Assembly (NCBI GenBank): GCA_951406725.2
Contig: OX597819.1
Span: forward strand, 92,256,001-92,320,000
Reading direction: 5' to 3'
DNA length: 64,000 nucleotides
From: Octopus vulgaris
Taxonomy: Eukaryota
How positions within the stretch are numbered: the first letter of the stretch is position 1; each line of letters opens with the position of its first letter. Both the position numbers and the translations under genes were made by a program. Under the pieces are notes generated by a model. It worked only from the letters and a program-made list of their open reading frames with translations. It had not been told where the DNA came from and did not search any database. Of the stretch, positions 1 through 59,030 are shown piece after piece.

Positions 1-844
1 AAAAATAAAAACATATGTAGGATACTCACACACAGAAACACACACAAACACATACACAAACACACACACACACATGTATACTTAAATGTAGATTTGTTGG
101 AACAAAATATTTTGCGTCGATTTGAAAAGCCATCGTATATCGTTCATATCGAATCATATCGTTCATATCGTCAGCGGGGAGATGAATCTCCACCAACTAC
201 AGCGCCGAGACGACCATTTCACGTGATTTCGGTCTTCCTTGATCTTTCCGGAAATGGACTCTCGACCGCTAGAGATAACAGCTACTCATCTCTTCACTAG
301 CGATGTTTAGACAATCAGTACTAGAACAGGGCCTGGTGTCGCGATTAGCCAATTATCTAGTTGAAATTATATATATCAGCGACGGATTCAGTGTTAATAC
401 CAAGAAGTAATATTTATTCCCACCTAAACGATGTTCTGTTAGAACAAACTTTATTGCAGCAGAGACCTTAAAATAAATTCTCAAATATGTGCTCCAAATT
501 TCTAAAAATACTTGTTCTAGGCTAATTGGAAAAAAGGAAGGTGCTTTACTATACGTCTATATTAATGAAATTTCCACATCCTTTTATCTATGAAAAAGAC
601 AAAACAGAGTTTGCTTCCATAACATTCTGGTTTCTTCAGCGTGGCAATTTGATTGTTTTCTATTCAATCGTCACACCTTCCTATCACAATGAGAAACATT
701 AGCTTAGGGCTTCTCAAACAACATGAGGAAAGAGATTGAATGAGGAGGTTCACCGCGAATTAATCCTCAGGAAATTCTCCACGCATGACATTTCGTTACT
801 TCCATGAATTCATCCTACTTGAGCAGAGCTGACAGGCGTAAGCT

Positions 845-1000
845 AGTCGATGTAATCGACCCCATTTCTCAATTGATTCTTATTTCATCAACTTCGAAAA
901 GAGGAAAGTTAAATCGAGCTGCGTGGAATTTGAACTGAGAATGTAAAGACGGACAAAATGCCGATATGCATTTTGTCCGACCTGCTATCGATTCTGCCAG
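845..1000 (-). mobile_element. Diverged SINE family B
   Basis: gtcgatgtaatcgacccc...ggaatttgaactgagaa...gattctgccag. Confidence 0.7.
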
Positions 1001-1546
1001 GTTGATCAACGATAGTAACAACACAAACAAGCAAACACATAAACAAACAAACAAACAAATGAAAAACAAGTAAAAGTGTCGTCACATTTTGGTCACATAA
1101 CTTCATAGACCTCGCAGCTGAAATGTCACTTTAATATCACTCTACCTTTTAAAAAGGAATACAGGAAGGACGCCTTATAGAATGTCGTCCTGCACCCGCC
1201 CTCAATAAAATCAATATAACAATACTGGAATGCATTTGACCGTAGGCCTGCTTAACTAAAACTGAATTGTGTGCGAAAAGACAACAACAATGACAATTAC
1301 TCTATCAGCAGTACTCAAAACAACCAGAAAAACAGTATTACCAACAATGCCGCTGTCTTAACACTGGTTACAATCATGTGTCAAAATCATCAATAATACA
1401 GTCAGTGCCTGTGTTATATGCACTAACTGCCAATGTTCCACATCCTATCATATCCTCTAATACTTCCTGCTTTCATCTTTACATCGTCACCTTTCACACT
1501 GTCGTTGTTGTCACTTCCTATTCTGTTCCAGGCCTCACATACTATG

Positions 1547-1840
1547 ATGGATTTTAGCCTTGATAAGTGTGCTAAAGCAACTTTTGTAAGAGGCAAGAAT
1601 TTCCAGTAAATTAGATACCGACACTACCACCAAGGAGCTTGACCCACAAGAAAGCTATAAATACATGGGGATAAACGAAGGAGATGGTATACAACGTGCT
1701 ACAATGAAGGAAAAAAAACGAAAGGAGTATCATAGGAGAATATGGCTCATACTAAAAACTGAACACAACGCCAAATATCGTATCGAAGCCATTAACACTC
1801 TGGCACCTCAAGTAATCCAATACAGTTTTAACATTTTTAA
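1547..1840 (+). pseudogene. R4/Dong-clade RT fragment
   Basis: MDFSLDKCAK...ESYKYMGI...KEYHRRIWLILKTEHNAKYRIEAINTLA. Confidence 0.8.
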
Positions 1841-3449
1841 CGATTTTGCTAGCTCATCACCGCCACCTAACAGCAACAACATCAACAATATGGAGTGGAC
1901 GTGTTAACGGGTGTCTTTATATTGGTTGTTGCGATTGCTGGAATTACCAGACAAATTTCTCTCGGTAGCAACGAAACTACAAACGGTGAACTATTTCGTT
2001 GTCGTAGAGTGATACTCCGATAACGACTGCTCTTGAGATCCAAGATTCATGGATCATCACCCCACCACCATTACTTCCCCTGCCTCAACATGGGAGGTGG
2101 GATAGACTGAAAGAAACAACTCCAGGGAATCATTCTTGATATTAAACACAAATGCTAAATAAAAATAGAGCTGGGTAATATGGTGAAGTGTAAAAACCGA
2201 GTAATTGAATTTATCAAAACAATGAGTAGATAGGCGCTTCCATTAGAGGTACCTAAAAACCTAACAATAAATAAATAAATAGATAAATAACTTATTTAGC
2301 CAAAAAAGATAACTCCTATACAATCAGTTTTTAGAAATTTTGGGCGCTCTATAAGAATTGTAAATACTATCTGACGGGCGTTTTTGCCGACTAATTGACA
2401 GGATAATCTCATTTGGCCGATTTTTTGTAAAACTCAACCACAAGCATATGCACAAACACCACGATAATTCTGATGCCCTTAACATCCGCACTCGTAACGA
2501 CAACGACCGAAGGCACACACCACCACCACCACCACAACCACCACCACCACCACCATACAATCATTACCATCACTAGTACCATCGTGGCTCCACCCCACTC
2601 TCATCGTTATAGCCGCTATTTCCATCTCCGTCGCCACGGTCATGAAAGTAACTAACACCACAATATTTCGACCACACCATTATTATCGCCATCACTTCTA
2701 CTAGCACCAATACGCCCCGCCCACTCTACCATCAGATAGGCTATCAGCTCCTTCAATACAACATGCAACGCCGGTTCCTATTATATTTTACTGATAAGTA
2801 CCTCTGCTGTAATTGTTTATTGCTAGCAATCACACCAGACATTAAAAGTACAGTTTATCTCCAGTTTTGTATCTAACAACATTCCAACACCCCATCCCTT
2901 ACAAACATATATATTTCCCCCAGCTCACTAATCACAATTCCAGCATTGCCACTAAACACCATTCTTCCAATAGACAACAATGTAAACAACAAAAGAAACA
3001 ACAAGAGCAACAACCCCAATAACACCGCCATTGCTAACACTGCCGCTGCTGATACTATCAATATCAATAAAACAACGCCATCTTTAGATACATTTTAGCC
3101 AATGAACCAATGAGGGAGCTCCTATGTGGCTGCTAGACTTGCTAAAAATAGCTCGCATTTCTCTTTCTCTCTCTCTCTCTTTTTACTATCTTAATAAAAC
3201 GAACACATTTGTATATTGTAGTCGATACATTATTCCCGAGAAAAAATAATAAAAGTCGAGATTGTGAAGGCAGGAATGCCTTTGACTCATTGCCTTTGTC
3301 GGCAGGGTTGACGTGTGGCAGAACAACAATAACAACATCAATCGTTAACATAAAAACAAATTCTACCATCATAGTACTAAACTGTACTAACCAACATTAA
3401 TATCGCTGCAGGAAGCATTACTAATATAAAAAAAAAACTGTACCATCGG

Positions 3450-4170
3450 TTCTAACATCTCAGTTAATATTACTCATTACATCTAAGTCATCACAGTCGC
3501 TGGAAACTTAGAGTGCATCATTCCGGGAACATCAGAAAGATCTGGACATAACCATCCGTCATTTCTCCTGTTAGACATCTGACCCTAGTCGAAGTTTTTC
3601 TCATTAAAGAAGAGCCAAAGCATGTCATGTTCGTGAGGGTTTTTAACGTTGCTAAGTAACTGATTGACACGGACCAAATAGACAGAAATTGGTCTCTTCA
3701 TTAGACTTGTACATTAGACATTAGACTTGTATCGAATGTTCTCATCCACTGTAGTTCTGACTGTCCACTCCGGCACCTGATATTCGCTGGTGATGGCTTT
3801 CATTGATTATCTAGGATCATCAGCGATAAGATTTTGGACGCGTTGGACGAATTGCGAGTCTTTTCTATAGTGTGCGAACATTTAGGGTTCTTTTTGTGTG
3901 TTGTTGATACAGATGAAACGCTTCTGCTAGAGACTTCCAATTCCATCTGAACCTTTATGTACAAAAGGTCTTGCATCATTTAGAAAGTTGGCAATATCTA
4001 AATTGCAGTATTCTCCACATAGAGTGACAATGATTGCATGTCTTTTCATTTCTTGTGTTAGCATTTTATCTACTTTGGCGGATTTGAAACAAGTTTTAAA
4101 AATCCTAATTATTTAGAAGAGAGTAATATGCTTATAATTAAATGTCCTCAAATACCCCTTGCAATCTGTA
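3450..4170 (-). pseudogene. Tc1/mariner-superfamily transposase, N-terminal half
   Basis: MKRHAII...FVQRVQNLIADDP...LWLFFNEKNF...NRRNDGWLC...HSKFPATVM. Confidence 0.7.
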
Positions 4171-4189
4171 TATATATATACATATATCT

Positions 4190-4574
4190 GCAGTAAGGCA
4201 TTATTTTCCAAATACGCCAGCTAAGCTAAGTTGAATTGTCTAAAGTCGTAAGACACCTGTTGTTGTTGTTGTTTTTGTCCTGTTATTATTATTGTTTTTT
4301 GTATTTATATTCGTGTGACATCGACCGTTTTTCTGTCTTTGTTTCGTATACATTCAATCCTTTTTCCAAGAGATCTAATGCTCGTAGCTTAGTTTTTCTT
4401 TGGAGCTGGCCGGATCGGAGCGATCTCACGATTAATCGGCCGAAATTGCGAGGATGATCCGGTTCTTGACTGAAGATTAGTGGCTTCGAATGACCCGTCC
4501 GTTTTTTGTGTTGTCTATGTGAATGTTTTGCGTTCTTGTCCAATTTTGTATTATTATTATTTGTTATTATGTAT

Positions 4575-50430: not shown

Positions 50431-51288
50431 CTAACGGCCCCATCTGCTAGCATCACTTACCTGTCCTTTAGTTATTAATCCCAAACAAATATGCTTTCCT
50501 CTCTCGAACGATTCTTCTAACTCCTTCACTGTCTCTTCATCCAGGTTCACCTTAGATATTCCCCAGTCCTTCTCTTTGCACCTTTCCACAAATTCCTCTA
50601 TTTGTTCCTTTGGGATTATTGCACATCTTTTCAGTCCCCTATCACACCATTGGTAGTCCGTTAAAGTCTCTTTTATTTCCTCTTTCCCTGAAATACATAG
50701 GGTGTAGGGCCTAGGTATATTTTTAGTATCTTGTTCGTATGCTTCTCTTTTTTGTTTTCTTGTTGGTGGGGAGTGGGTGGGTTCACTGTCTGCAGGGGAG
50801 GGGTGGGTCTCTGAGGGTGCGGGTGGTGTTGGGGTGGGCTGGGGTTCAACACTGCTTGGTTTTCTTCTTTTTCTTTTCCTCTTTTCCTTGACTTCATTCC
50901 ATTCTTTTGAATCCTCCTCCTCTTCTGTTGTCTCATTCTCCTCTGGTTTCCGCTCCTCTTCCACCTCTCTTTGAGGTTCTCTATCCATTTCTTTTGGTGG
51001 GGGAGGGCAGTTAGCTTTTATGTGGCCTCTCAGGCCACACTTGTAGCAACGAGGAGCTCTGCCCTCCACACACTTCTCCTCTGGTTTCTGCTCCTTTTCC
51101 GCCTCTCTTTGTGGTTCCGCATCCATATCCTTCTCTGGGAGAGGGCAGTTAGCTCTTATGTGGCCTCTCATGCCACACTTGTAGCAACGCGGAGCTCTGT
51201 CCTCCACCCACACTCTCATGATCACGCCTCCCATTCTGATATTCTCAGTTAGATTCTCTAGTACTGCATCCTCCGCTTGTACATTCAA
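50431..51288 (-). CDS. Retroelement ORF1/Gag-like protein with two CCHC zinc knuckles (N-terminus disrupted)
   Basis: CYKCGMRGHIRANC and CYKCGLRGHIKANC lie in a 46-aa (138-bp) duplication. They are followed by acidic, basic and Pro-rich tracts. Confidence 0.8.
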   Translation of the reverse strand: MNVQAEDAVLENLTENIRMGGVIMRVWVEDRAPRCYKCGMRGHIRANCPLPEKDMDAEPQREAEKEQKPEEKCVEGRAPRCYKCGLRGHIKANCPPPPKEMDREPQREVEEERKPEENETTEEEEDSKEWNEVKEKRKRKRRKPSSVEPQPTPTPPAPSETHPSPADSEPTHSPPTRKQKREAYEQDTKNIPRPYTLCISGKEEIKETLTDYQWCDRGLKRCAIIPKEQIEEFVERCKEKDWGISKVNLDEETVKELEESFERGKHICLGLITKGQVSDASRWGR

Positions 51289-51509
51289 GTCTAGCGTTGC
51301 GCCTCTCCAGCCTTCGATTTTTACGAAAAAAAAAAAAAAATTCGTCTCACCGCTCTGCTGCCAATTTCTACTGCCTGGTGCTTGTGCTTCGTTACTCTAC
51401 TCCCCGTTAAAAACGTCTCTGAAGGAGGTACGTTTTATATTTATGAGGGTTTTCACCTCAACTCTTTAACATAAACTGACCCCAATAGCTGCTAATATTT
51501 ACTCCATTT

Positions 51510-56590: not shown

Positions 56591-56689
56591 ACGTGATATA
56601 TATATATATATATATACATATAAAAGCATATATATATACATATGTATATACATACACACACACACACACATATATATATATATGCGTAT

Positions 56690-57294
56690 ATGGGTACAGG
56701 ACGTCACCAACAGTAAAGAAAATGCAATACAAAAACAAAGGATTTCAATACTCAAACAACGAGAGAAACAAATCGAAAGCAGGACAAGTAACACAAAGGA
56801 CGACCCTTCATCAGTTGTCAGCTGTCTATCTACTCATTTCGAGCATTGCACGAAAATATGAGTCTTCGAAGACAGTTTCTCCCATAAGTACCAAAATAAA
56901 ATTTGGGACTCATGGTATGTCAAAGCTGGGAACAAAAACAAGACAGTGAAATCATAGAGTGAAACAGAACGAAAGCAAACATGGAGGGTCGTTAGACCAG
57001 AACAAGGGTAAAATAGCGAACGCTGGAGATATATTTTCTTTCACGAGAGAAAATATAGAAGAGAGAGATAGGATACGTCCACTCCTTAGGACAGTCTTCA
57101 AGGAAGAGGAAGATGATCCCGTGATGAAAAGAAAGATGGAAGATGGTCACGTGTGAGCAACGAGAGGGAGAAAGGGAGAAAGAGGGAGAGAGAGACAGAT
57201 GGAAAACGGTGAAGTGGAGAAAAGGGGAATTAGAGAAAAGGATGAGAGAGAAAACAGTATAGAGTAGAGTCGCATCAAAAATATTAAGATAAAT

Positions 57295-57295: not shown

Positions 57296-57338
<43 letters not shown>

Positions 57339-57560
57339 TCAATATAGGGTGGCAAAAAAAATTTTGTAGAATTCTTTTGCCACCAGCGGCCTAGTGGGAA
57401 AAATTAAATAGTCATAAACCATTTTTAAGTTCAACATCACAATCAAGGAACGGCCATAATAGGCCATTCACCCACTAGAAATAACAGCCAAAAAGCTTTA
57501 ACCGCAAAATAACGTCAATTCCGTAAACCAGGAGAAAATTAAAAAACATTTACCCTGTAA

Positions 57561-57665
57561 TTTCTTAGACGATGCACCGTTTCATCTACTGTTTAATGGA
57601 AAACTAACCTGATTAAATTAAATCAAGCCAATCTACCATAGGCCCTTAGATTCATCAGTAAGAAA
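57561..57665 (-). ncRNA. Type I hammerhead ribozyme (inverted copy of 58199-58303)
   Basis: Reverse complement of the + strand motif; tcatcag at 57652-57658. Confidence 0.9.
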
Positions 57666-58198
57666 TAGCCAAGCCGGAACAGATATTTTTCACGAGGCAT
57701 TCTCGTTGCTACCTCGTCAATATCTGACCTAAAATTTTCAAATCGTCGCACTCGCGCCAAATTTATCGGCAGCAAATAAATATAAGCCGCCGATTCCATT
57801 ACGGAATTAACCAGAAAATTCATAATTAATCAATATAGGGTGGCAAAAAAAATTTTGTAGAATTTTGCCAGCTGTTATTTGGCTGTTAGCGGCCTAGTGG
57901 GTGAATGGCCTATTATGGCCGTTCCTTGATTGTGATGTTGAACTTAAAAATGGTTTATGACTATTTAATTTTTTCCCACTAGGCCGCTGGTGGCAAAAGA
58001 ATTCTACAAAATTTTTTTTGCCACCCTATATTGATTAATTATGAATTTTCTGGTTAATTCCGTAATGGAATCGGCGGCTTATATTTATTTGCTGCCGATA
58101 AATTTGGCGCGAGTGCGACGATTTGAAAATTTTAGGTCAGATATTGACGAGGTAGCAACGAGAATGCCTCGTGAAAAATATCTGTTCCGGCTTGGCTA

Positions 58199-58303
58199 TT
58201 TCTTACTGATGAATCTAAGGGCCTATGGTAGATTGGCTTGATTTAATTTAATCAGGTTAGTTTTCCATTAAACAGTAGATGAAACGGTGCATCGTCTAAG
58301 AAA
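58199..58303 (+). ncRNA. Type I hammerhead ribozyme with long stem II
   Basis: tttctta-CTGATGA(58206)-atcta...tagat-GAAA(58281)-cggtgcatcg-TC-taagaaa. Perfect 7-bp stem I, intact core, GUC cleavage triplet. Confidence 0.9.
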
Positions 58304-58427
58304 TTACAGGGTAAATGTTTTTTAATTTTCTCCTGGTTTACGGAATTGACGTTATTTTGCGGTTAAAGCTTTTTGGCTGTTATTTCTAGTGGGTGAATGG
58401 CCTATTATGGCCATTCCTTGATTGTGA

Positions 58428-58476
<49 letters not shown>

Positions 58477-58480
58477 TATA

Positions 58481-59030
58481 TGGATACAGGACGTCACCAA
58501 TAGTAAAAAGCATAAAATACGAAAAAAAAAGGAGTTCAATACGCAAACGAGTGAAACAAATCGAAAACAAGACAAGTAACATAAATGAAAACCCTTCATC
58601 AGTTGTCAGCTGTCTATCTACTCCTCATTTTTGGCTTTCAACGAGAATATGAGTCTTCGAAGACAGTTGCTCCCATAAATATCAAAATAAAATTTGAGAC
58701 TTATGGAGGCTAAAATTTGGGAACAAAAACAGGACAGTGGAGATGTACAAGAAAACCGAACGAAAACAAACATGGAGGGTCTTTAGAGGAGGAGGGGAAA
58801 ATAGTGAATGCTGCAGAAATATTTTCTTTGACAAGAGAAAAGATAGAAGAGAGAGATAGGATACGCCCAGTCCTTGGGACAGTCCTGAAAGAAAAGATAG
58901 ATGATCACGTGAGGAAAAAAATGATGGACGATAGTCACGTGTGAGCAACACGAGAGAGAGAGAGAGAGAGGAAGAAAGAGAGGAGAGAGAGATAGAAAAT
59001 TGTGAAGGCGAGAAAAAGGAATTAGAGAAA
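58481..59030. mobile_element. ~550-bp (TA)n-embedded repeat, copy 2
   Basis: Homologous to 56690-57295. Confidence 0.8.

Follow-up and report, generated by a model that had tools for sequence, protein, structure and literature searches.

The inverted repeat at positions 57331-58429 of the window, by which we mean the whole 64,000-nt stretch of Octopus vulgaris contig OX597819.1 that was analysed, is a real and very young insertion of a non-LTR retrozyme that behaves like a non-autonomous Penelope-type element (PLE). The reading that we favour, at a probability of roughly 70%, is that a non-coding retrozyme with a hammerhead motif was inserted at (TA)n by a PLE enzyme, through dual target-primed reverse transcription of one RNA. 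This kind of element is already known; what sets this variant apart are the paired fixed ends, the head-to-head multimeric arms and the signs of two template forms.

An earlier note on this DNA had described inverted arms of one 491-nt ribozyme unit, each holding a full unit plus about 43 nt and reading through the GUC cleavage site, as well as an additional hairpin, and all of these features were found again (Table 1). The two arms lie head to head with their 3' ends outward. The left arm ends at a fixed site B, at +237 from the predicted cut, and is truncated at its 5' end near phase 195; the right arm ends at a fixed site A (+131/132) and is 5'-truncated at phase 89. The stretch between both sites forms a 'tail' that lengthens just one of the two outer ends. 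Over 57435-57864 and 58000-58429 the arms are complementary at 429 of 430 nt; the two arms of this locus differ by one extra homopolymer T and, at 58413, by a G>A within a CpG. The filler between them terminates in an 8-nt microhomology and resembles what microhomology-mediated end joining would leave. The unit has a GC content of 36% and folds as a whole at z -6.1, and no open reading frame of at least 170 aa was listed for the element of the window.

Table 1. Features of the insertion, in window coordinates.
Feature	Position	Strand	Basis or detail
(TA)n target tract, left	57301..57330		sequence
Left arm, 534 nt	57331..57864	-	491 nt + exact 43-nt repeat
'Tail', about 105 nt between sites A and B	57331..57434	-	sequence; analogy to PLE tails (PMC11167929, PMC8557442)
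Type I hammerhead motif, left arm	57561..57665	-	predicted cut 57568/57567
Head-to-head junction filler, 29 nt	57865..57893		unit fragments of 7-14 nt, both orientations
Right arm, 536 nt	57894..58429	+	492 nt + 44 nt
Stem-loop just upstream of site B in the unit	57989..58025	+	folding
Two-stem hairpin	58138..58184	+	folding, z -3.8
Type I hammerhead motif, right arm	58199..58303	+	core and stems; predicted cut 58296/58297
Stem I of the right-arm motif	58199-58205/58297-58303	+
CUGAUGA	58206-58212	+
Long stem II	58213-58280	+	about 68 nt
GAAA	58281-58284	+
GUC	58294-58296	+
Stem-loop just upstream of site A	58395..58416	+	folding
(TA)n target tract, right	58430..58474		sequence

The insertion is flanked by two same-orientation copies of an older repeat (56681-57240 and 58471-59030, 82% identical), each adjoining a TA tract and with relatives in nine other fetched loci; this repeat contains CUGAUGA on the minus strand, although no complete hammerhead was seen in it. 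Elsewhere in the window, an open frame of 321 codons on the minus strand (50434-51396) contains a CxxCxxxxHxxxxC zinc-knuckle motif, and we take it to resemble a retroelement gag/ORF1.

We searched the genome (2.8 Gb in 227 contigs) for further copies. The cut-site motif occurs in 2,944 exact copies, with none for a reversed-pattern control, and there are 435 exact (TA)n junctions of the A end and 701 of the B end, also with none in the reversed controls. A DNA search with the unit gave 1,270 candidates, 40 of which were scored. In all, 121 insertions were mapped, with positions in the unit counted from the predicted cut: 40 picked by similarity, a set biased toward long arms, 61 (in 60 regions) taken from the top of the list of A-end matches, and 20 from B-end matches that had no exact A match. 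Three unrelated matches (in L035, L096 and L147) and one array running off L098 were left out of the counts, and one arm of the similarity-picked set (L049) was clipped by the mapper. L098 holds, at 1-4564, at least nine units of a subfamily that has diverged (90% identity); this array extends beyond the fetched stretch and is separated by 300 nt from a young copy.

The outer ends of the 121 insertions lie at site A (around +131) or site B (around +237), with the 3' ends of both arms outward, and their pairing is strict: 90 loci are inverted A+B, none is A+A or B+B, eight have one odd end, and in 23 no inversion was called, although five of these have a very short second arm of complementary type. 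Likewise, of the 61 loci chosen solely by their A end, 48 carry a B end on the other side and none a second A end. Of the 121 loci, 105 have a TA tract on each side and 16 on one side only. Lengths of the 210 arms range from 23 to 5,517 nt, more than one unit in 95 of them, and the inner ends vary; arrays reach 11 units at a spacing of about 490 nt, and the copies are dispersed over many contigs. At the majority of two-arm junctions there is an overlap of 1-7 nt, and the lengths of the two arms of a locus are correlated (rho 0.53 in 60 loci and 0.28 in all 90).

These records contain the hallmarks of mobilization by a PLE, namely 5' truncation, an inverted partner copy, a one-sided tail and a microsatellite target, together with the features that define non-LTR retrozymes, which are tandem non-coding units, one type I hammerhead motif per unit and dispersed copies. 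LTR-type direct terminal repeats are absent from the mapped insertions, whose outer ends are unequal and outward and whose inner ends vary. A MITE or fold-back DNA transposon needs identical terminal inverted repeats, and the lack of any A+A or B+B pair among the 121 loci rejects that identity; an autonomous PLE was also rejected, as the arms consist of the 491-nt unit and none of the 121 insertions contains an open frame for RT and GIY-YIG. The end mapping also changes how the locus should be read. The arms had been described as different circular permutations of the unit, but variation is confined to the inner (5') ends, whereas the two outer ends have set positions in the unit, about 105 nt from each other. 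Nor is the 43-nt redundancy a signature of permutation or mechanism: both arms measure 491-560 nt in only one of the 90 A+B loci, that of the window, and the matching redundancy is thus a coincidence. Fixed ends common to all other copies, as in an LTR or MITE, had been named as evidence against the original model; they are found at the outer side, which is half of that expectation, yet they fit a Penelope-type tail and not an LTR or MITE.

The core of a type I hammerhead (CUGANGA, GAAA and NUH, with three stems) is present in the right arm, and its short stem III is capped by a palindromic UGCA loop. Rfam returned nothing at the gathering score for this motif and, by E-value, just microsatellite noise, possibly because of the long stem II. 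Among 41 distinct motifs, from 303 copies of related families, stems I to III pair in 37-41 of the 41 at 13 positions, and the alignment includes compensatory stem swaps between sister families, although this covariation comes from few families and events and from motifs selected by their core pattern. A palindromic loop III occurs in 39 of the 41 motifs and a GUC or GUA triplet in 40; as far as the predicted fold goes, such a loop fits the dimeric hammerheads described in PMC4209133. A sister family with a 470-nt unit (about 70% identical; 2,482 candidates) shows the same pairing of ends, with A+B in 14 of 27 loci read by eye and no same-end pair. At least three older sister families (L270/L271, L035:1561-2243, L233:536-786 and L147:1426-1934) keep the hairpin order, and those in which the hammerhead could be aligned have compensatory stems. 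A separate hammerhead family (L209, L217, L153 and L239), with a stem II of about 53 nt, is also arranged head to head in (TA)n, and its ends lie about 45 and 200 nt past the cut.

Open frames near the mapped loci led, with five protein queries, to five PLE-like families, four young and one decayed, to which we assign, presumably, Hydra-like and Neptune-like clade labels. For one query, the Pfam cut-off was exceeded by GIY-YIG and narrowly missed by RVT_1. Copies of the four young families lie in (TA)n, and their 3' ends fall at two fixed positions about 30-75 nt apart, an anatomy like that of the retrozyme and matching the published PLE tail; in the inverted loci of these four RT/GIY-YIG-type families a short end was paired with a long one in 14 of 14 cases, of which 12 came from a pattern search and two, of the first family, were read from the sequences. 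The young families (L150-L179, L180-L211, L245-L260 and L291-L310) consist of many near-identical copies with open frames of about 700-1,312 aa; three of them have a hammerhead-like motif of their own, and none was seen in the L150 family. In the five families compared, out of many more PLE candidates in the genome, we found no ends or pLTR homologous to the unit. An 18-nt match of the unit to the 3' region of one family was discarded (E about 5, and also present in other repeats).

Several lines of evidence indicate that both arms of a locus were copied from one RNA. Sequence difference amounts to 0.34% within arms and 0.37% between the arms of a locus, versus 3.2% between loci; diagnostic sites in 78 loci were concordant between arms in 2,314 of 2,334 cases, with 20 discordant; and 18 of 25 locus-private fixed variants were found in both arms, the other seven lying where one arm alone has coverage. 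The shared haplotype could alternatively stem from a single active source locus per cell. Passing of the first cut site is coupled between the arms (counts [[30,10],[1,19]], p = 1.7e-7, 60 loci). In the end-anchored loci, 24 of 107 arms stop on the first pass within a 45-nt window around the cut site, which was chosen after inspection of the data, against a baseline of about 8%; stops in the flanking windows are 5 of 112 and 2 of 83, and on later passes 5 of 56 arms stop in the cut-site window. For first against later passes, p is 0.033 when the end-anchored loci are tested but only 0.16 when all arms are. From these stops, together with the near absence of variants shared in register (below), we read the templates as a mixture of cleaved linear monomers and circles. 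Three elements of the mechanism in the earlier note are supported, namely a unit with a hammerhead ribozyme, copying by reverse transcriptase past the cut site and, probably, a circular template, while free permutation is not; the strand inversion during integration that it invoked is better explained by two primings, one per side of the target cut.

Worded as a model, transcripts of arrays would be cut by the predicted hammerhead into monomers, some of which would be ligated into circles. A PLE RT/endonuclease, perhaps as a dimer, would bind the structured A/B region and extend both target 3' ends inward from the (TA)n cut; it is likely that a PLE-type enzyme primes at two sites about 105 nt apart, from both broken (TA)n ends. 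The template would be one RNA, either cleaved and linear or, probably, circular. On a cleaved linear RNA both cDNAs would halt near the cut site, whereas on a circle strand displacement would let them continue for as many as 11 units; joining of the two cDNA ends by microhomology repair would then yield head-to-head arms and a one-sided tail. We put forward more tentatively, at somewhat less than even odds, the specific version in which a PLE RT dimer sits at two fixed sites of one ribozyme-made circle and primes from either end of a double-strand cut, and both subunits roll around that circle before their cDNAs are joined. If true, PLE tails, head-to-head inversions and retrozyme tandems would all follow from one mechanism, and Penelope integration could be tested on the 491-nt circle as a minimal substrate.

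Dual priming by a PLE enzyme could also operate without any circle, if long arms derived from uncleaved linear multimers or from template jumps between monomers, which we consider unlikely. Existing arrays could well be transcribed as multimers, and the Anolis PLE worked in vitro mainly on unprocessed RNA (PMC11167929). There are also periodic variants, every four units in L057 (2268-7784) and every three in L077, and 11 within-array variant columns are common to two or more units, which indicates that multimeric templates, or later DNA duplication, also occur. A mixed multimer should nevertheless leave unit-specific variants in register in both arms, and we found just one in 11,816 sites of 27 loci, where about 24 are expected if the source was as mixed as present arrays, or 6 (p = 0.02) if it was four times less mixed; this count requires at least two other copies, and a laxer one (12 in 16,625) was discarded because 11 of its 12 variants had one other copy. 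Besides, private variants are fixed across all units of a locus, and the 13 long arms that terminate near a cut site, which might be taken as ends of linear multimers, are at chance level (13 of 144, with 13.2 expected).

Still less probable is a single priming, after which the inverted arm would be copied by fold-back or self-priming and endonuclease resolution would set the second fixed end (PMC3846280, PMC8557442); head-to-head inversions have indeed been attributed to self-priming in PMC3846280. Inner ends fall within 10 nt of the same phase, often at short palindromes, in 16 of 84 two-arm junctions against 3.6 expected, but joining by microhomology likewise predicts palindromic junctions. 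Arm lengths are compatible with fold-back copying in 65 of the 90 A+B loci; in the other 25, that of the window included, the second arm cannot fit within the first, and the longer arm can be either one (A in 38, B in 52). We regard as very improbable that the family is a DNA-level repeat (a satellite, or a fold-back or MITE-like element, expanded by unequal crossing-over) or an assembly artefact. Some arrays do show higher-order periodicity, and in four public runs, covered as contigs only, the unit is represented while the bins at the window junction (57845-57884) have zero depth, so that this one junction stands without read confirmation. However, an artefact is unlikely because the same anatomy recurs in 90 of the 121 sampled loci, each with its own different junction, and a repeat of DNA origin fits poorly with copies scattered over many contigs, whose inner ends are 5'-truncated and whose outer ends are unequal and lie in (TA)n, and with ribozyme pairing conserved across families and an excess of stops at the ribozyme cut. 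Ten of the 24 runs listed, from three studies, that we guess to be RNA contain 0.49-0.77 of the words of the unit, as contigs, which show neither strand nor ends nor circles.

The favoured reading of dual target-primed insertion has precedents in PLEs. According to PMC11167929, two RT start sites define the PLE tail, and PLE proteins cut and extend both target strands in vitro, with a predicted dimer; for the Anolis PLE, hammerhead cleavage is dispensable for insertion in vitro and the start sites are alike on both strands, two points that we count against our explanation. Partial tandems, inverted 5'-truncated copies, tails of 30-40 bp and (TA)n targets are described for PLEs in PMC8557442, with their mechanism left undefined. 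Endonuclease-positive PLEs (PMC8557442, PMC11167929, PMC3846280) thus resemble the octopus family in their partial tandems, 5' truncation, inverted 5'-truncated copy, one-ended tail, microsatellite targets and a type I hammerhead upstream of the 3' end; they differ in that the octopus unit has no open frame and a longer tail (about 105 versus 30-40). The strict pairing of one site per end and the shared template are counted here, and we did not find them stated for PLEs in the accessible text of those three papers.

Metazoan non-LTR retrozymes (PMC7229834; 10.64898/2026.07.22.740005) are likewise non-coding tandems of low GC content in which every unit has a type I hammerhead; their copies are scattered over an animal genome where PLEs are present too, and circular templates and mobilization by PLEs were proposed for them. 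Retrozyme circRNAs occur in coral, mussel and axolotl, with PLEs as proposed helpers (PMC7229834), and retrozymes have been related to pLTRs (Li et al. 2026, bioRxiv 10.64898/2026.07.22.740005). The unit of 491 nt exceeds the 170-400-nt RNAs of PMC7229834, although it lies inside the 51-972 bp of the preprint; other differences are the long stem II, the head-to-head inversion of most copies with two fixed ends in (TA)n, and pLTR homology, which was not found here in the five PLE-like families. In the text available to us, the word 'inverted' does not occur in PMC7229834, nor do 'tail' and 'target-primed' in the preprint. The formation of PLE tails and of inverted and tandem copies, and the mobilizer of retrozymes, are stated as open in these sources (PMC8557442, PMC7229834, 10.64898/2026.07.22.740005). 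We found no paper on this 491-nt family or on paired A/B priming for retrozymes, in a search of mostly open main texts.

The young family offers hundreds of insertion records that combine PLE hallmarks with strict pairing of two start sites and show signs of both cleaved-linear and circular templates, and its short, defined RNA makes a model of dual priming and rolling-circle copying directly testable. In L1 twin priming, both target strands also prime cDNA on one RNA and microhomology joins the ends, but the internal position of the second primer varies and there is no overlap between the pieces; in the octopus family both sites are fixed and the arms overlap across several units. Each locus is a long perfect inverted repeat and, therefore, a potential source of double-stranded RNA.

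Two patterns of base changes were also observed. Unit-private changes in the arrays of the family include, on the sense strand, 46 G>A versus 24 C>T, though G and C are in a ratio of 107:72, an excess that possibly reflects cytosine damage on the cDNA strand. At 58041-58087 of the window, a contig of depth 6, from a presumed RNA run, carries clustered A>G changes, four of which are missing from both DNA runs, a weak hint of editing of double-stranded RNA.
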